Of a DNA stretch of 6,933 nucleotides, positions 646-6,933 are shown in pieces. Source of the DNA: a virus (Duplodnaviria > Heunggongvirae > Uroviricota > Caudoviricetes); the IMG/VR virus record IMGVR_UViG_2548876700_000016. One strand, 5' to 3'. Every line of letters begins with the position of its first letter. The stretch's first letter is position 1. The notes beneath the pieces were generated by a model. The model made no database searches and had not been told where the DNA came from. It saw nothing but the letters and a program-made list of their open reading frames with translations. Made by a program: the position numbers and the translations under genes.

Positions 646-863
646 AACCCCCCCTCCCCATTTTCACAATCAGCAACAAGAATATTTTTAGCGTCATTCA
701 GCGACCGCGTGGCGGTGTATCGGATGCATTCCAGGGCGAACAATGTGTATTCTTCCCGTTCTTCCTTTTGTGCAAGCCCTGCTGTGCATTCAATATCAAT
801 AAGCGCATGCATCAGCGTAGTGAGCGCGGCGGCGGCTGCGTCCGGCGTGGTTTTATTGTGCAT
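618..863 (-). CDS. Hypothetical small protein (81 aa from the internal Met; the track ORF extends to 893)
   Basis: ATG at 863-861 with GGGGGA 5 nt upstream; this start overlaps the last codons of the 853-1320 gene by 8 nt. The same stop/SD/ATG arrangement is repeated at 1313-1320 for the paralogous upstream gene. The first Met of the track ORF (893) has no SD. Confidence 0.35.
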   Translation of the reverse strand: MHNKTTPDAAAAALTTLMHALIDIECTAGLAQKEEREEYTLFALECIRYTATRSLNDAKNILVADCENGEGGLCVMIVLIP

Positions 864-1320
864 AGGTTTCCCCCTGACGAATACGGGCGACAAAAATCAG
901 ATGTGCGTGCGGCAGCTGGGCGCGGGCTTCGCGTTCTGTTGCTGCCGTGACGGTAAAGAGTGAGGTTTGTTTTTCCTGGCACTGCATAAAGCGCCAGACA
1001 AAATAAGGGCGTGCGGATACAGCCATGTGAAAGGCTCCCAGATGAATTTTAAGGAGTCTCGCTACTACGCTGTCAAACATGGTGGCGAGACGTAACAGGG
1101 TTGACAGACTGGTCATCTGGAAACCAGCGAGCACAAAGGCTCCCCCGTTACGCCCCGCCATAATGCGGGTATGGGTAGGTTTACGGACACAAAAAAACCG
1201 CTTATCGGATGTGGGCGGCTGTCCGCCAGATGTATTCAGGCTGTCAAACCCGGTCGCCATGTGGGCGACGGGGGAAGCATACAGCCCCGTGATAATTTTT
1301 TGCAAGCGGTTTTTACGCAT
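853..1320 (-). CDS. Hypothetical protein (155 aa) whose C-terminal 57 aa are paralogous to the 67-aa protein at 1313-1516; may alternatively be expressed as a standalone 57-aa protein from the internal ATG at 1026
   Basis: Continuous ORF. ATG at 1320-1318 overlaps the upstream gene's stop by 8 nt with a GGGG SD. The internal ATG at 1026-1024 has its own GGGAG SD about 8 nt upstream. The C-terminal segment ...YFVWRFMQ...ATEREARAQ...LIFVARIRQG aligns with ...YIWRFIAL...ATSEQEARQQ...VFAARIRQG of the 1313-1516 protein, with synonymous codon differences (cgc/cgt, gcc/gca) that support this frame. Confidence 0.45.
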   Translation of the reverse strand: MRKNRLQKIITGLYASPVAHMATGFDSLNTSGGQPPTSDKRFFCVRKPTHTRIMAGRNGGAFVLAGFQMTSLSTLLRLATMFDSVVARLLKIHLGAFHMAVSARPYFVWRFMQCQEKQTSLFTVTAATEREARAQLPHAHLIFVARIRQGETYAQ

Positions 1321-1516
1321 GATGTGACCCCTGACGAATACGGGCAGCGAATACCATCACGCAGCCAGCCGGAGATTGCTGGCGTGCTTCCTGTTCGCTG
1401 GTGGCCTCAATGGTAATCACGCGCGGTTGTGCCGTGCTCAGGGCGATAAAACGCCAGATGTATTTATTCAGGTTGTGCGAGTCCCGCCCTTGCGGGTGTG
1501 TGGTATGATTTCTCAT
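1313..1516 (-). CDS. Hypothetical small protein (67 aa), first gene of the minus-strand small-gene operon
   Basis: ATG at 1516-1514 with GAGGT 4 nt upstream. It is the C-terminal 67 codons of the 354-aa track ORF. Paralogous to the C-terminus of the 853-1320 protein. Sits directly downstream of the divergent control region. Confidence 0.55.
   Translation of the reverse strand: MRNHTTHPQGRDSHNLNKYIWRFIALSTAQPRVITIEATSEQEARQQSPAGCVMVFAARIRQGSHHA
1501..1509 (+). promoter_or_regulatory. Candidate extended -10 promoter element (TGgTATGAT) on the plus strand
   Basis: Sequence tggtatgat fits the extended -10 consensus TGnTATAAT with one mismatch. It lies about 45 nt upstream of the terminator hairpin at 1553-1597 and inside the first codons of the minus-strand gene. 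No convincing -35, which is common for extended -10 promoters. Confidence 0.3.
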
Positions 1517-1552
1517 AGCTACCTCGATACGCTTTCTATCGTTGGTGGTTAG

Positions 1553-1597
1553 AAGCCCTGCGAGTGGTAACGACACTTGCGGGGCTTTGCTTTTTAC
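1553..1597 (+). terminator. Rho-independent terminator-like hairpin, plus-strand specific
   Basis: AAGCCCTGCGAGTG (1553-1566) pairs with CACTTGCGGGGCTT (1574-1587): 14 bp with two G-U wobbles that would be A-C mismatches in the minus-strand RNA. 7-nt loop, followed by TGCTTTTTA. Confidence 0.5.
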
Positions 1598-1612
1598 TGT
1601 ACCTACTGATAT

Positions 1613-1656
1613 TGTACGTACGTAACAGCAATGATAATAGGAGTTACGTACGTACA
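1613..1656. promoter_or_regulatory. Perfect 14-bp inverted repeat, candidate operator for the Arc-like repressor
   Basis: TGTACGTACGTAAC (1613-1626) and GTTACGTACGTACA (1643-1656), separated by 16 bp. The spacer contains the AGGAG Shine-Dalgarno (1639-1643) and the right arm abuts the ATG at 1656. A candidate minus-strand promoter (TACAAT / TTATCA) overlaps the arms. Confidence 0.55.
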
Positions 1657-1847
1657 TGTCAACATTAAAGCGCGATAAATCGCCACGCGGTGAGGGATGG
1701 TCTCCAACCTTCCAAATCAGAATCAGTAAAGAGCTACGCCAACAAGTAAATGAGGCGGCAACTTCTGACGGTCTAACCCTTGGTAACTGGTTTAAAGAAT
1801 TAGCTAGGGCAGAACTAAAGCGGCGCGGCATAGAGCCAAAAGGTTGA
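1656..1847 (+). CDS. Arc/Mnt-family ribbon-helix-helix DNA-binding protein (63 aa)
   Basis: PTFQIRISKELRQQVNEAATSDGLTLGNWFKELARAELKRRG aligns position by position with the P22 Arc core PQFNLRWPREVLDLVRKVAEENGRSVNSEIYQRVMESFKKEG (beta-strand F-x-L/I-R, then two helices). AGGAG SD at 1639-1643, 12 nt from the ATG. Confidence 0.75.
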   Translation: MSTLKRDKSPRGEGWSPTFQIRISKELRQQVNEAATSDGLTLGNWFKELARAELKRRGIEPKG

Positions 1848-1868
1848 ATTTCAGAAGGAGATAAAATA

Positions 1869-2021
1869 ATGAACTGGCTGTTACATACCCTCCCAGGTCG
1901 CATTCTCATTGCACTAATTATTTTATGGATTTTGTACCAATTCGGTTTTTTCGATTCGCTTTGGAAGCCTGACTGTTCCGTTAACCCTGGCGATGTACTG
2001 AAAGGCTGTAAAAATGGCTGA
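1869..2021 (+). CDS. Small single-pass membrane peptide (50 aa), below the ORF-track size cutoff
   Basis: AAGGAG (1855-1860) 8 nt upstream of ATG at 1869. Translates to MNWLLHTLPGRILIALIILWILYQFGFFDSLWKPDCSVNPGDVLKGCKNG, with a hydrophobic helix ILIALIILWILYQFGFF and a short tail with two Cys. Stop TGA at 2019-2021. Starts 21 nt after the Arc-like gene's stop. Confidence 0.55.
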   Translation: MNWLLHTLPGRILIALIILWILYQFGFFDSLWKPDCSVNPGDVLKGCKNG

Positions 2022-2052
2022 TCAGGGTTACTCCCTGTAATGCCTTTAACTG

Positions 2053-2080
2053 GCCCTCTTAAAGAGGGTTGGTTATCTTC
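2053..2080 (+). terminator. Weak terminator-like hairpin downstream of the RHH/membrane-peptide bicistron
   Basis: CCCTC (2054-2058) / GAGGG (2064-2068) with loop TTAAA, followed by a T-rich but interrupted tract TTGGTTATCTT. Confidence 0.3.
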
Positions 2081-2330
2081 GCAGCTCTCTACGTTTTTCG
2101 TCGGAACCTCTGAACCTAAGCAGTGTTGATGTTCAGGAGAACCCGAATACTGTTCGTGTTCGTTGCTCGCCAATTCTCGCGTTTCGCGATAATCAAAATG
2201 ATTCAATGGGTTGAGATGTCCGTACGTTAAACGTACGCGGTTAATTTGTACGTGCGAATTTCGTCGGCTCAAATTCTGCGCAACCCTGATTGAGTTATGC
2301 AAATAGCACGCGGCTAACTCACAAGGATTT

Positions 2331-2362
2331 GAGCGCCCCCAAACGGGGGAGCGCAAAATTTT
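2331..2362. terminator. GC-rich hairpin between the convergent operons, possible terminator for either strand
   Basis: CCCCC (2336-2340) / GGGGG (2345-2349) with loop AAAC, extended by 2-3 flanking base pairs with one mismatch, followed by AAAATTTT. Lies 15-45 nt downstream of the Rha-like stop on the minus strand. Neither strand has a clean U-run immediately after the stem. Confidence 0.3.
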
Positions 2363-2376
2363 AGGCATAAGACGCA

Positions 2377-3087
2377 TCAGCGAATCTCCAACACTGACGA
2401 TGAAGTGATCAGGCTGGCGAACGCATCCATACGGCGGGCAACCTCACGCACCGCATCGCCTGGACTCATGTCATTACGCACCGCCTCATTAAAGGCCGCC
2501 TGTTCGATTTTCTGCATCACTACCAACAGCCCCAATTGCTGTTCGTCTGCGGTACCGCGTTCACCATCAGACAAACCAGCCACGCGGTTTTCAGCGCGGG
2601 CCAGATTGATGTAATGGTGCCGTTGTGCGCCCAGAGCTTTTAATCTGTCGCGGCTTTCGTGATAGCCAGGCAGGTACTCACGGCGGATAGGTTCTGCGGC
2701 GCGGCGCTTAGTGAATGCCTTCGTAACATCCAGTTTGAACTGGTTAATACGCTCAGGATCACGCCCTCGGGTGATACGCAGCAGATAGTCGAGCTGCGGC
2801 TCATTCAGCAGATAACTAATCTCAGGACGCCCACGCTTTCGGCCGGATTTTCCCGATTTCAAATCGGTTAATTCCTTGAGTGACTGACGAGGCAGTGATC
2901 CCAGCTCGCGCAATCTGCTCTGGTGCGATTTAATCGTCGCGCTTAGGCTTTCATGTTGTATTCCGGCTCGCTCTGAAATAACGCGGGAATCGATACGCGG
3001 CTCCGATTTGTGATTAATTAAAATATCGCTCTGGCTGGCTTCAGGGTGAGCGAATCCCTGCCCGTTGAGGGCATTAATCTTTTTCAT
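2377..3087 (-). CDS. Rha-family phage regulatory protein (236 aa)
   Basis: N-terminal region IDSRVISERAGIQHESLSATIKSHQSRLRELG matches the Rha-domain signature D-S-R-x-I-x-E-x-x-G-x-x-H-x-x-L-x-x-x-I as I recall it. Starts 20 nt after the alpA-like stop, so probably co-transcribed. C-terminal region not recognised. Confidence 0.6.
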   Translation of the reverse strand: MKKINALNGQGFAHPEASQSDILINHKSEPRIDSRVISERAGIQHESLSATIKSHQSRLRELGSLPRQSLKELTDLKSGKSGRKRGRPEISYLLNEPQLDYLLRITRGRDPERINQFKLDVTKAFTKRRAAEPIRREYLPGYHESRDRLKALGAQRHHYINLARAENRVAGLSDGERGTADEQQLGLLVVMQKIEQAAFNEAVRNDMSPGDAVREVARRMDAFASLITSSSVLEIR

Positions 3088-3107: not shown

Positions 3108-3392
3108 TTAAGCAGATTTGCGGCTGTATGGGTTATTGACGTTCTCTACTACAGGCGGATTACGAACCCACCAGAGCACATCAGAAAGAAGCCAGGCACA
3201 GCTATTGCGGCCGAAGTGGCAGCGTGGCGGAAATCGTCCTTGCTGCTCCATTTTCCAACGGCTGGAACGGGAAAGGCTGGTGATCTCGCTACATTCTTCT
3301 TCACGGATTCGACGATCGAACTTAAAGCCGTACTCTTCTAAAAGGGTGCGGCGCTGTTCAGGATTAGGCGGGGTAAAAATGGGGTTTTGCAT
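3108..3392 (-). CDS. alpA: AlpA-family (Xis/MerR-like HTH) prophage transcriptional regulator (94 aa from the internal Met; the track ORF extends to 3434)
   Basis: EITSLSRSSRWKMEQQGRFPPRCHFGRNSCAWLLSDVLWWV follows the AlpA pattern (T-G/S-L-S-R-S-T-I-Y...G-x-F-P-x-P...W...E-V/I-x-x-W). GGAGG lies 4 nt upstream of the ATG at 3392-3390; the first Met of the track ORF (3434) has no SD. Confidence 0.75.
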   Translation of the reverse strand: MQNPIFTPPNPEQRRTLLEEYGFKFDRRIREEECSEITSLSRSSRWKMEQQGRFPPRCHFGRNSCAWLLSDVLWWVRNPPVVENVNNPYSRKSA

Positions 3393-3530: not shown

Positions 3531-4460
3531 TTACTGTGTTCTTTCGCTCGGCCTCTTATGCGCATTGTTTAATATTGCTGCTATTTTCGTTTCTGTTTTT
3601 ATTGGCAATTCACCATTGATGAACCAGTCAGGTCTGGCGATCAACTCACGGGCCCAGGCAGAATAGTTAATAGTTCCATCTGTTTTTCTGCAACTCTCAT
3701 TAAAAGCATTTTGCTGCTCTTCTTTGAAGCGCATGGCTACCATTAAAATTTGCTCTCGATTTCTTGCATGTCTTTCAGCAGAATGATGAACAATTTCATT
3801 GCCATTCATCTTATGAGGTTCTACAAATTCAATATCATCTGTCAGCGTGAAATAATCGCCACCACAGTCAAGGAGCCGCCTTATATCCTGAGCAGTAATC
3901 CACAAATCGTTTATAGAGATTTTATTTTTGAATACTTGATCGTCTTCTTCATCATAATCGCTATCTTCGCCAACCATTAAAAGCTGTACGGCGGGATTAT
4001 CAGTTTCTGGATGGCACGGGGTTAATTCAAAACCACTTAGGGCATACTCTCCAAAATTTTGTAGCTCTTCTAATCCGCTCCAAAGACGCCACAACCCATA
4101 AGCCTTACCAATAGAACTGAAACACCCATTTTCTGTATCTTGACCAAATAAAGGCACGTGAATCGTTTCTTCCGTTTCCTCATTGTAATCGCATCTGTAG
4201 AGATGAAGCCTGGAAAATTCAGTAATATTGTTTCCCATCATGGATGTGGTGGAGTTTGCCTTTCTGGTATCGAACCAGTCGCATGCAGATTTGCTGTCAG
4301 TTCTCATATATAAAACAGCGCGAGCATCAAACAAATTTAGACATAAAGATATTTTTTTAGTAACACCTAAATTAATCAGGTCGCTAATCTCACAACCCAG
4401 CAATCTCGACGCACGTTCAATATTGCAGTATTGAAAAGGTATTTTAATGTCGTTAGCCAT
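3531..4460 (-). CDS. Hypothetical protein (309 aa), AT-rich orphan cargo gene of unknown function
   Basis: ORF-track ORF with GAGGG SD 7 nt upstream of ATG at 4460-4458. Visibly more AT-rich than the flanking int and alpA/rha genes. N-terminal stretch IERASRLLGCEISDLINLG looks HTH-like; central acidic stretch EDSDYDEEDD. No P-loop, nuclease or other catalytic motif recognised by eye. Confidence 0.7.
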   Translation of the reverse strand: MANDIKIPFQYCNIERASRLLGCEISDLINLGVTKKISLCLNLFDARAVLYMRTDSKSACDWFDTRKANSTTSMMGNNITEFSRLHLYRCDYNEETEETIHVPLFGQDTENGCFSSIGKAYGLWRLWSGLEELQNFGEYALSGFELTPCHPETDNPAVQLLMVGEDSDYDEEDDQVFKNKISINDLWITAQDIRRLLDCGGDYFTLTDDIEFVEPHKMNGNEIVHHSAERHARNREQILMVAMRFKEEQQNAFNESCRKTDGTINYSAWARELIARPDWFINGELPIKTETKIAAILNNAHKRPSERTQ

Positions 4461-4497
4461 TGCGCTGCCCTCAACGCCCCTAAATTAATTTGCGAGC

Positions 4498-4522
4498 CAA
4501 GCGGGTAGGGTTTCCCGCTTTT
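4498..4522. other. Short hairpin in the int/orphan intergenic region, weak terminator candidate
   Basis: AAGCGGG (4499-4505) / CCCGCTT (4514-4520) with an 8-nt loop. The plus-strand tail is TTTTCGG; the minus-strand tail has no T-run. Confidence 0.25.
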
Positions 4523-4553
4523 CGGTTGGCCGACCTAGGCCCGCAATATCAGT

Positions 4554-5780
4554 TTAATCTCTATTCATTACAGGTAACAGAACCACATTTTGATGATTAC
4601 CCGCAAGAAGTTCTAATCGTTCATACCACTTATTCAGCGCGTCCAGCTTCTCAGGCAAGTACAGACTACGGTTATAAATCGCCATAACTCCCGGCATTGA
4701 GTGCCCCAACAACTGTTCGACAACGTGTGGTGCTATACCCATATTATTCATATGCGTTGCTAAAGTTCGTCTTAGATCGTGCAGTGTCCATGGTTCAGAA
4801 TGCCCCAGCTTTTTATAAACGCTACGGCCCCACTGGCTTACCGCTTCACTGCCTTTAACCGACCCAAGCAAAAGACCGGATAGTTTCGTTTCATCATGCA
4901 GTATTTCAATGAATTTGCGCATGGCATCCGGCACAGGTCTTACAATCTTCTCGCCGCCCTTGCTGTGCTCTTTGGGAACTGTCCAGACCCAGGCATCCAT
5001 ATCCCATTCACTCCACTCTGATAGTCTGGCCTCCTGCGTTCGGCACCCAAACACCATTAAGATTGTCAGTAGCCTGGTGTAGTAAGGCATGAAGCAAGTG
5101 CTAGAGGTAATGGCAGTCCATAAATCGCCAGCCTCTTTATCGTTTAATACCCGATCTTTTTTTGCCTGTTTTTTACCGACATCTGGAATTGTTAAATCTT
5201 CAAGCGCGGTACTCACAGCATAGCGACGAACCCGGCAGAATTTCAGGGCTTGTTTGCACATCTGGAACACATAACCTGCGGCGACTGGCGTTTTCTTTTT
5301 CATCCTGTCAAAGCAGTCAAGCCAGTATCGGGTTTCGCAGTCAGCGAGCGCCATTTTTCCAATGTAAGGGTAAATATGTTTGCGTAGCTCCGCTTTATGC
5401 CGCTCAACATTCGCGCGATTCTCTTCTGCATATTCACGTATCCAGTATTCGATAGCTTCCTGCACCGTGACCGGTTTAAGCGTTTCCTGAGTAGTTAGCG
5501 CCAACTGGTGCTTTGGGTCTTTACCTGAGGCCAGCCACTGGCGGCATTTATCACGCGAGGAACGGGCCTCTTTGAGGCTCATATCCGGGTATCGTCCCAG
5601 AGTAAGACGATGCAACTTCTGCCCGTCGAGTCGGTAAGTAAACACCCAGCTAATACCACCAGCTTTCGTTACCTTGGCACTCAGCCCGGCACCATCAGCA
5701 TAGAACTCAATCTTACTGGCCGGGATGCCATGTAATCCCTTTAACTTCCTGTCGCTCAGTTTGTTAAGTTCGCCAGCCAT
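4554..5780 (-). CDS. int: Tyrosine recombinase/integrase, P4-type with an N-terminal arm-binding domain (408 aa from Met at 5780; the track ORF extends to 5864)
   Basis: C-terminal catalytic signature HDLRRT ... LLGHS ... AIYNRS (R, H-x-x-R, H, Y). N-terminal pattern L-x-D-x-K...DG-x-GL...W...YR...G-K...LG-x-YP-x-x-SL-x-x-AR typical of P4/CP4-type integrases. The Mets at 5864 and 5840 lack an SD; the Met at 5780 has a weak GGTGG. Confidence 0.85.
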   Translation of the reverse strand: MAGELNKLSDRKLKGLHGIPASKIEFYADGAGLSAKVTKAGGISWVFTYRLDGQKLHRLTLGRYPDMSLKEARSSRDKCRQWLASGKDPKHQLALTTQETLKPVTVQEAIEYWIREYAEENRANVERHKAELRKHIYPYIGKMALADCETRYWLDCFDRMKKKTPVAAGYVFQMCKQALKFCRVRRYAVSTALEDLTIPDVGKKQAKKDRVLNDKEAGDLWTAITSSTCFMPYYTRLLTILMVFGCRTQEARLSEWSEWDMDAWVWTVPKEHSKGGEKIVRPVPDAMRKFIEILHDETKLSGLLLGSVKGSEAVSQWGRSVYKKLGHSEPWTLHDLRRTLATHMNNMGIAPHVVEQLLGHSMPGVMAIYNRSLYLPEKLDALNKWYERLELLAGNHQNVVLLPVMNRD

Positions 5781-5964: not shown

Positions 5965-5990
5965 TTCAGGTTAGCTAATTGCTTGATTAA

Positions 5991-6026
5991 AAGGCGCTAC
6001 TCGGCATGGGGAAGCGCCTTTTTTAT
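5991..6026 (+). terminator. Rho-independent terminator (the native fis terminator in its chromosomal context)
   Basis: AAGGCGCT (5991-5998) / AGCGCCTT (6013-6020), 8-bp perfect stem with a 14-nt loop, followed by TTTTTTAT. Confidence 0.7.
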
Positions 6027-6048
6027 AGGTGTCACAAAGGGAGTGACC

Positions 6049-6933
6049 ATGAGAACAGGATGTGAACCGACCCGGTTTGGTAATGAAGCTAAGACCATTA
6101 TTCACGGTGATGCCCTTGCCGAACTTAAAAAGCTACCTACTGAAAGCGTCGATCTGATCTTTGCCGACCCACCGTATAACATCGGTAAAAATTTTGATGG
6201 TCTGATCGAAGCCTGGAAAGAAGATCTGTTTATCGACTGGCTGTTAGAAGTGATTGCAGAGTGCCACCGCGTTCTGAAAAAGCAGGGCAGCATGTACATC
6301 ATGAACAGTACGGAAAACATGCCCTTTATCGATCTCCAGTGCCGCAAGCTTTTTACCATCAAAAGTCGCATCGTCTGGTCATATGACAGTTCTGGAGTGC
6401 AGGCGAAAAAACACTACGGCTCCATGTACGAACCCATCCTGATGATGGTGAAAGACGCAAAGAACTACACATTCAACGGTGATGCTATTCTGGTAGAAGC
6501 CAAAACCGGATCGCAGCGCGCGTTGATCGATTATCGCAAAAATCCTCCACAGCCTTACAATCATCAAAAAGTACCGGGTAACGTCTGGGATTTTCCGCGC
6601 GTGCGTTATTTGATGGATGAATATGAAAACCACCCGACGCAAAAACCGGAAGCCTTACTGAAACGCATTATTCTCGCCTCTTCCAACCCAGGCGATATCG
6701 TTCTCGACCCGTTTGCTGGTAGCTTTACTACCGGTGCCGTAGCCATCGCCAGCGGACGAAAATTCATTGGTATTGAGATCAACAGCGAGTACATCAAAAT
6801 GGGGCTTCGACGGCTGGATGTCGCGTCGCATTACTCTGCGGAAGAACTGGCGAAAGTGAAAAAAAGAAAGACCGGCAACCTGTCAAAACGAAGCCGGTTA
6901 AGCGAAGTTGACCCCGATCTCATTACAAAGTAA
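6049..6933 (+). CDS. yhdJ: DNA N6-adenine methyltransferase YhdJ (294 aa)
   Basis: Recognised as YhdJ from MRTGCEPTRFGNEAKTIIHGDALAELKK... and the DPPY motif (LIFADPPYNIG). AAGGGAG SD 7 nt upstream of ATG at 6049. The track ORF (5983-6933) adds an N-terminal extension that runs through the upstream terminator and is not credible. Confidence 0.9.
   Translation: MRTGCEPTRFGNEAKTIIHGDALAELKKLPTESVDLIFADPPYNIGKNFDGLIEAWKEDLFIDWLLEVIAECHRVLKKQGSMYIMNSTENMPFIDLQCRKLFTIKSRIVWSYDSSGVQAKKHYGSMYEPILMMVKDAKNYTFNGDAILVEAKTGSQRALIDYRKNPPQPYNHQKVPGNVWDFPRVRYLMDEYENHPTQKPEALLKRIILASSNPGDIVLDPFAGSFTTGAVAIASGRKFIGIEINSEYIKMGLRRLDVASHYSAEELAKVKKRKTGNLSKRSRLSEVDPDLITK

Follow-up and report, generated by a model that had tools for sequence, protein, structure and literature searches.

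The question raised by this locus is what a stretch of phage DNA does when it lies between genes and seems to encode none. The stretch in question is positions 2022-2376 of a 6,933-nucleotide sequence (IMG/VR virus record IMGVR_UViG_2548876700_000016, Caudoviricetes), the whole of which is called the window here. The window is part of a P4-related, capsid-forming phage satellite of the phage-inducible chromosomal island (PICI) type, integrated at the fis site beside yhdJ. The element was classed as capsid-forming because near-identical E. coli copies run on into primase/helicase and HK97-type capsid/protease genes, and it was placed at the fis/yhdJ site because the window ends in the chromosomal yhdJ gene. 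The initial annotation had described the 355-bp region as a gap between convergent operons, rich in palindromes and lacking any open reading frame (ORF) with a credible start. The reading preferred here, with a probability of about 0.68, is that the gap is the first third of a 354-codon minus-strand frame whose translation matters and whose product does not, in the manner of the P4 eta/kil genes. The features concerned are the following.

1313-2377, minus strand: the bridge ORF, 354 codons with an ATG start, from the ORF list
2022-2376, minus strand: the gap, codons 1-118 of the bridge ORF; frame kept open, amino acid sequence unconserved
2375-2389, minus strand: putative coupled translation start, with ATG at 2377-2375, GGAG at 2389-2386 and an 8-nt spacer
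2377-3087, minus strand: Rha-like gene (Pfam Phage_pRha, E = 1.6e-5, below the gathering score; RefSeq annotation of near-identical copies)

The palindromes, repeats, GC hairpin, operator and long antisense frame named in the initial annotation were all found where it had placed them. The same was true of the TGATG overlap with the Rha-like stop, in which the bridge ATG and the TGA at 2379-2377 have one base in common. The statement that there is no ORF with a credible start did not hold, since this minus-strand ATG sits on the upstream stop behind a GGAG, and 34 of the 34 related loci with an upstream gene have an in-frame start codon placed over the stop of that gene. From the sequence of this junction we infer that the bridge start is coupled to the upstream stop. 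The description of the region as lying between convergent operons was half right, as the minus-strand ORF chain goes on through the gap by way of overlapping start and stop codons. According to the ORF list, that chain is unbroken between alpA and the window's left edge, its members overlapping or closely abutting.

From the Rha-like stop, the bridge ORF crosses the gap, runs antisense to a small membrane-protein gene, a ribbon-helix-helix (RHH) repressor gene and a divergent promoter/operator, and continues in frame into an Icd-like gene (copy 1). The NCBIfam model phage_ICD_like (NF033153) matched residues 306-349 of the 354-aa bridge ORF. The 66-aa Icd-like protein has a start of its own at an internal ATG at 1515, and the bridge ORF stop is overlapped by the next minus-strand frame, ORF 853-1320, which starts 8 nt before that stop.

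The openness of the gap was evaluated by dinucleotide shuffling of the window sequence. The gap was stop-free in the bridge frame in 0.3% of the shuffles (P = 0.003) and in any of the six frames in 2.1%, while the other five frames of the actual gap contain 4-10 stops each. By itself, the openness of the gap in the window is suggestive but not decisive. The ORF list contained no plus-strand ORF of at least 36 aa inside 2022-2376. A plus-strand protein gene was also considered on the basis of an 81-97-aa ORF found in some relatives and was rejected, this ORF being broken in the window and unconserved.

Relatives were drawn from E. coli genomes and from one induced-prophage record in which the long frame is annotated as a coding sequence (CDS). 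Further relatives were obtained from species-representative genomes by means of a conserved 18-mer and from IMG/VR contigs by means of the palindrome described below. Essentially all intact relatives carry a long stop-free minus-strand frame of 265-493 codons that begins where the upstream gene ends and continues until the Icd-like gene ends. Four unrelated kinds of gene occupy the upstream position (Rha-like, a 232-aa protein, AntA/B-like and a fourth in Erwinia), and the start/stop overlap takes the form TGATG, ATGA or GTGA, one locus having ATGA where its kin have GTGA. All surveyed junctions have GGAG or GGAGG 6-8 nt 5' of the start. The frame is also present in satellites without this core (L055-L057), and most of 80 viral contigs with a close copy of Icd-like copy 1 have 130-411 open codons upstream of it.

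The segment equivalent to the gap was measured from the overlapping start to a conserved landmark, GAGTAACCCTG, just beyond the plus-strand gene; this landmark lies within the open frame in 31 of 31 loci. Twenty-five unique variants of the segment were found in 15 lengths (286-829 nt), every one of which equals 1 modulo 3. There are no stops in the bridge frame of these segments, as against 1-16 in nearly all of the other frames. The differences in length are cassette-like insertions of 9 to about 52 codons, and insertions up to about 470 nt are stop-free in the bridge frame. The antisense frame is also without stops across all 17 distinct alleles of the repressor (RHH or YlcI type). Given the repressor protein sequence, the chance of an open antisense frame is 0.15-0.86 per allele, and the product over the alleles is 4e-8. 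The segment thus has the marks of a translated frame: indels in multiples of three, no stops across diverged homologues, and a conserved start with its Shine-Dalgarno sequence.

The marks of purifying selection on a protein, a ratio of nonsynonymous to synonymous substitution rates (dN/dS) far below 1 and a surplus of changes in the third codon position, are lacking in the same segment. Pairwise dN/dS was 0.5-1.2 with a mean of about 0.85, and the substitutions were evenly distributed over the codon positions (105/86/102). Upstream and neighbouring genes, analysed as controls, mostly gave 0.02-0.4 and Icd-like pairs gave 0.1-0.7. The 118-aa gap peptide had no match in Pfam, PHROG, NCBIfam or PADLOC and, among 5.8 billion proteins, it matched 32 unnamed clusters only. 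The short peptide motifs that recur in it (PSLRG, RVRLTYG and RSPVWGRS) are DNA hairpins read in frame. Judged by its substitutions, the amino acid sequence of the gap frame is essentially unconstrained and appears to evolve nearly neutrally. Because phase, stop avoidance and start are kept while dN/dS is 0.5-1.2, the frame would be selected for translatability and not for its product. Furthermore, the frame of L003 and L029 stays separate from Icd and ends on the Icd start codon in an ATGA overlap, which argues for ribosome delivery rather than a fusion protein. The view in the initial annotation that the antisense frame looks non-protein was therefore correct, yet the frame is under strong selection to stay open and coupled. 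Its long antisense frame and TGATG overlap deserved closer study, and the dN/dS analysis it had called for was well chosen. Ribosomes probably read the gap on the minus strand.

The closest precedent is P4. According to the portion of PMC10111431 that deals with Forti et al. (1999, J Bacteriol 181:5225), P4 eta contains a constitutive promoter, is coupled to an alpA homologue, and its translation prevents the termination of transcripts arriving from the upstream late promoter. The paper also lists fis/hpt PICIs and P4-like satellites by the thousand. In the P4 sequence, the start of eta (8168-8812) overlaps the vis stop as ATGA, and eta spans a1b1 and the C4/CI RNA; its residues 161-208 match phage_ICD_like, and this C-terminal domain is kil. 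Like eta, the bridge ORF begins on the stop of an upstream regulator (by TGATG, ATGA or GTGA here), contains a constitutive-type promoter-like site comparable to PLE inside P4 eta, and ends in frame as an Icd/Kil-like protein of about 65 aa with the same NCBIfam domain.

There are also differences. In the window, the C4/CI RNA and its targets lie outside the bridge ORF, in the downstream nested pair 853-1320. The latter is the stricter and closest counterpart of eta, and the bridge ORF is an additional nested pair upstream of it. Furthermore, the frame has 265-493 open codons where P4 has 214, it covers an entire RHH repressor gene and its operator in antisense, it consists of cassettes that are gained and lost, and it is kept in relatives without any C4 RNA. 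What is already known is the translation-dependent read-through of P4 eta/kil; what would be new is its extension across an antisense repressor gene and a plus-strand array of terminator-like hairpins.

The immI region of P1 and P7 is organized as c4 RNA, icd and ant, and translation of icd controls the expression of downstream genes. The window resembles immI in having a C4 antisense RNA, a/b target sites (both as Rfam matches) and an Icd-like reading frame. However, P1 is not known to have a long upstream frame coupled to a preceding operon or an antisense repressor gene, and the counterpart of immI in the window is again 853-1320, outside the region considered here.

By analogy with P4, the following sequence of events can be proposed. 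When the alpA-side operon is activated by a helper and transcribed, ribosomes would remain on the read-through RNA from the Rha-like gene through the gap and the antisense RHH gene and operator to Icd-like copy 1. From there, overlapping start and stop codons would hand them on to the eta homologue with the C4 RNA and to the replication genes. Covered by ribosomes, the long RNA would be spared Rho-dependent polarity and would not fold into hairpins, and the resident RHH and C4 immunity would be overridden. AlpA of Pseudomonas acts as a processive antiterminator (PMC7969949). The same activity was considered for the AlpA-like protein of the window and set aside; the protein weakly matched one solved AlpA-family chain (E = 0.003), a match on which nothing can be claimed.

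Several observations weigh against this account. We infer both the translation of the gap and its purpose from sequence conservation. The GC hairpin lies just 23 nt into the bridge ORF, the minus-strand RNA of the gap has no Rho-loading bias of C over G, and dN/dS values of 0.5-0.6 in some pairs leave room for weak protein-level constraint. About 16 of the 80 Icd-linked loci have just 30-91 open codons upstream, and either the frame is dispensable in some elements or these copies have decayed. Mosaic elements have in common the palindrome and several blocks of the core, which could serve a further purpose as DNA or RNA. Additionally, most of the core-containing relatives (L001-L005) have no C4 RNA at the Rfam threshold. 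It follows that bypassing C4 immunity cannot explain the frame in general, and its role must be broader. By the P4 analogy, the most economical reading is that the general role would be protection from Rho-dependent polarity and hairpin formation together with ribosome delivery to the downstream coupled genes, and this generic role is the only one to suit all of these relatives.

The hairpins and repeats of the gap have next to be accounted for. They are listed below.

2054-2079, plus strand: hairpin CCCTCTTAAAGAGGG followed by TTGGTTATCTT, the first terminator-like element after the operon of the RHH gene and the small gene
2139-2162: GAACCCGAATACTGTTCGTGTTCG, the most conserved 24-mer in the core, hairpin-capable
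2172-2194: small hairpin AATTCTCGCG-TTT-CGCGATAATC, the sole helix with compensatory changes on both sides
2221-2237, plus strand: 17-bp palindrome CGTACGTTAAACGTACG, a terminator-like hairpin with the tail CGGTTAATTT; its minus strand encodes RVRLTYG
2247-2254: TGTACGTG, a neighbouring GTACG copy
2254-2261 and 2271-2281: imperfect repeat of GCGAATTT and AAATTCTGCGC
2333-2362, plus strand: GCGCCCCC-AAAC-GGGGGAGCGC and then AAAATTTT, terminator-like; its minus strand corresponds to bridge codons 8-15
2336-2349: GC hairpin CCCCCAAACGGGGG, which extends to GCGCCCCC/GGGGGAGCGC at 2333-2354

A terminator scan of the bridge regions of the window and two relatives placed all terminator-like calls on the plus strand, the palindrome included. 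Over the 25 variants, the plus strand had 65 terminator-like hairpins and the ORF strand 10, compared with 11.0 and 3.3 in shuffled sequences. The element at 2054-2079 was likewise scored as terminator-like in relatives, where there are 1-3 copies of it, and at the position of the GC hairpin, relatives of the L004/L005 type have a canonical plus-strand terminator, GGCGGCCCGGCATGGCCGCC followed by TTTGTTTT. Most likely, the plus-strand palindromes belong to a terminator-like array, predicted to stop transcripts of the RHH operon before they enter Rha, alpA and int in antisense. Like the intrinsic terminators found between convergent units, the hairpins at 2054-2079, 2221-2245 and 2333-2362 are followed by T-rich tails on the plus strand. 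Unlike them, they form an array of weak-to-moderate putative hairpins in place of a single bidirectional terminator, and they are embedded in a frame on the opposite strand. A strong hairpin outside the gap, GAAGCCCTGCGAGTG...CACTTGCGGGGCTT with TGCTTTTT at 1552-1588 in the 5' leader of Icd-like copy 1, was also scored as a plus-strand terminator, though no obvious plus-strand transcript arrives there; it is kept, with changes in the stem, in all relatives examined.

The possibility was considered that the core is instead a structured plus-strand RNA, either the 3' untranslated region of the RHH operon or a small RNA, which would regulate the read-through transcript in antisense or act on a helper-phage target and could coexist with translation of the other strand. 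The region folds better on the plus strand (z = -4.5) than on the minus strand (z = -3.1), and insertions are located in predicted loops. In the hairpin at 2172-2194, three pairs alternate between CG/GC/AU and AU/AU/GC among the alleles. However, the other five of the six helices had no double changes (11 sequences, with few independent events). Many G-U pairs occur on the plus strand only, an asymmetry that is expected because the structure was predicted on that strand. No promoter-like site was found inside the region. An Rfam scan of the window with E up to 1 gave nothing in 2022-2376, the matches to C4, c4-a1b1, isrK-like and int-alpA all being elsewhere. Moreover, an RNA element does not explain the conserved phase and the absence of stops on the opposite strand. 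Such an RNA is judged unlikely.

The 24-mer at 2139-2162 has been counted in favor of a structured RNA because of an unexpected identity. In the 18-mer scan it surfaced as a match of 23-24 nt to Bro-N/KilAC antirepressor genes of Citrobacter, Erwinia, Pseudomonas, Paenibacillus and others (loci L009-L013, L015, L021-L023, L026 and L028). The stretch is read in the same frame in these genes (EHEQYSGS), and there is no flanking similarity in either DNA or protein. The identity could represent a relic, a recombination scar, an antisense target or chance. As an argument for a regulatory RNA it is weakened by the rarity in E. coli of the Bro-N family that carries the 24-mer, which was found in 27 of 5426 genomes.

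It is also conceivable that the frame encodes a functional protein, namely a long Icd/Kil isoform with a fast-evolving and probably disordered N-terminal extension of which the sequence or composition is relevant. The frame continues into a real Icd-like domain, some pairs have a dN/dS as low as 0.5-0.6, short peptide blocks recur (NRVRLTYGH, HEQYSGS and NQPSLRG), and one phage record annotates the frame as a CDS. However, the recurring blocks are translated DNA palindromes and hairpins, whole cassettes of 9-52 codons are gained and lost, the frame of L003 and L029 is unfused, and the even substitutions and the mean dN/dS given above, compared with about 0.2-0.4 for neighbours, do not indicate a selected product. 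With no family match, and with nothing but unnamed clusters resembling the peptide, this explanation appears distinctly unlikely.

The last alternative of substance concerns proteins that might bind the palindromes. The initial annotation had suggested that the GTACG palindromes are additional sites for the RHH protein or an origin or partition-like site, and had raised the prospect of a packaging signal. The features of the repressor region are as follows.

1516-1655: divergent promoter/operator region, which drives the RHH gene and the 50-aa ORF on the plus strand
1613-1626 and 1643-1656: operator inverted repeat, 14 of 14 bases complementary
1662-1634, minus strand: leftward sigma-70-like promoter TTGACA-17-TATTAT, 11 of 12 by consensus match only, overlapping the operator and internal to the bridge ORF
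1656-1847, plus strand: RHH (Arc/HicB/YlcI-like) repressor gene, with weak Pfam, PHROG and NCBIfam matches, wholly antisense within the bridge ORF
1869-2021, plus strand: hydrophobic ORF of 50 aa, preceded by a good Shine-Dalgarno sequence and inserted after the RHH gene, ahead of the conserved post-gene hairpin

The possible binders are the RHH protein at secondary operators, another conserved DNA-binding protein, or the proteins of an origin or partition site. The window contains 18 copies of GTACG where 8.1 are expected, 1 of 200 shuffles reached 18, and each of its four copies of CGTACG belongs to the operator or the palindrome. Between 2210-2227 and the operator/-35 segment at 1646-1663, 16 of 18 bases agree, so that a secondary contact of the window's own RHH protein with this site may occur, as far as base matching can suggest. 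In some relatives, a second copy of the ACGTTTAACGT core lies about 100 bp away. The 17-bp palindrome is conserved in all relatives, whatever the type of RHH protein; neither the neighbouring TGTACGTG nor the GCGAATTT/AAATTC repeat is conserved.

It is the course of the repressor and its operator that decides against RHH sites. Repressor alleles and their operator palindromes change jointly and the 2221-2237 palindrome does not. Elements that bear this palindrome have operators as different as GGTAATTACC in L001, the CTTCAAGGTG type in L003 and L005, and GTTGACAATG in L004. Since the palindrome is kept despite a different RHH/YlcI allele and operator, RHH binding cannot explain its conservation. 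The palindrome thus resembles the short operators of Arc/Mnt/CopG-type RHH proteins, here the true operator at 1613-1656, but unlike those its conservation does not track RHH specificity. No tandem repeats (score at least 30) or iterons were found in the region, and its GC content of 0.45-0.49 includes no AT-rich stretch, contrary to the proposed origin or partition site. A packaging signal is made less likely by the related induced-prophage record, in which the ends of the linear genome adjoin the terminase genes and not the gap. Binding sites of any of these kinds are considered very unlikely to account for the region.

Two repressor families were distinguished, an RHH type (MST...GIEPKG) and a YlcI type (MAT...KKARSE(S/P)ES), and the operator palindromes differ with the allele, for example GTACGTAC, GGTAATTACC, GTTGACAATG and CTTCAAGGTG. 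Repressor and operator are immunity types that swap as a module. The 50-aa ORF was found only in the window and L001, and the antisense bridge frame is open across it.

Finally, the notion that the open frame is a functionless by-product of chance or inheritance and the gap a plain spacer between convergent genes is hardly tenable: the modest any-frame probability of about 0.02 in a single window, the common ancestry of the related elements and the roughly 20% of Icd-linked loci without a long extension speak for it, but it fails to explain why all 15 length classes are in phase with long insertions stop-free, why a Shine-Dalgarno sequence and a start on the upstream stop go together in all four independent junction types, and why the antisense frame is open in every one of the repressor alleles.

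The remaining features of the satellite are listed for orientation.

853-1320, minus strand: ORF of 155 codons that spans the a1b1 targets, an isrK-like match and the C4 RNA and ends as Icd-like copy 2
853-1026, minus strand: Icd-like copy 2, the C-terminal end of ORF 853-1320
1078-1165: C4 antisense RNA (Rfam match)
1233-1282: c4-a1b1 targets (Rfam match)
about 3108-3391, minus strand: AlpA-like gene
3531-4460, minus strand: 309-aa ORF between int and alpA (phrog_7144, unknown function)
4477-4545, minus strand: int-alpA RNA (Rfam RF02996, 61 bits), between the integrase gene and the 309-aa ORF
4554-5780, minus strand: integrase
5983-6933: chromosomal methylase gene yhdJ, at the right end of the window

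The two Icd-like genes, both to the left of the gap, flank the C4 RNA and the a1b1 targets, and the element holds two Icd-like paralogues as well as both RHH and C4-RNA immunity. The 309-aa ORF had no match in Pfam or PADLOC; in relatives its slot is filled otherwise, by DUF6387 proteins or 217-aa proteins, a variable position typical of satellite cargo. PADLOC gave zero matches for the bridge ORF, the Rha-like protein, the small ORF and the 309-aa ORF, and no tRNA was found in a scan of the window.

In the annotation of relatives, standard pipelines leave the gap blank or call fragments. RefSeq gives pieces of the long frame as pseudogenes of an 'ash family protein' or 'hypothetical protein' with 'missing C-terminus' (L057 2981-4435; L058 2470-4020). 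Automatic annotation therefore sees the long frame and cannot place it; the copy in L058 is genuinely frameshifted. The contigs with short frames were L069, L079 (7 copies), L116, L138, L120, L070, L102 and L122, and their Icd copy 1 is near-identical. A broken fragment of the core with 151 codons adjoins fis in L035 (10473-10769), beside a prophage, and resembles the remnant of a decayed satellite.

In combination, the terminator-like hairpins of the plus strand and the ribosome track of the minus strand would constitute a one-way valve. In its full form this proposal is tentative and perhaps doubtful: unidirectional terminators would stop the repressor transcripts of the plus strand, and minus-strand transcription induced by the helper, ribosome-covered for about 1 kb, would read through these hairpins, collide with repressor expression and silence it by convergent transcription and antisense RNA, and feed ribosomes to the Icd and replication genes. 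Gap, RHH gene and bridge frame would together set the induction switch. If so, a frame of several hundred codons would be kept solely to carry ribosomes past a gene on the opposite strand, an arrangement apparently widespread in enterobacterial satellites. Annotation pipelines miss the continuous chain of coupled frames that links the alpA-side operon to the replication operon.

The translation of the gap, if true, would be a clear natural case of selection on being translated without selection on the product. Its signature is measurable, as phase and stop avoidance are conserved at a dN/dS near 1, and it would also constrain the codon choice of the repressor on the opposite strand. Furthermore, it would provide a testable mechanism by which satellites override their own RHH and C4 immunity on the arrival of a helper phage, and it would extend the logic of eta/kil to a much larger group, the fis-site and related PICIs.

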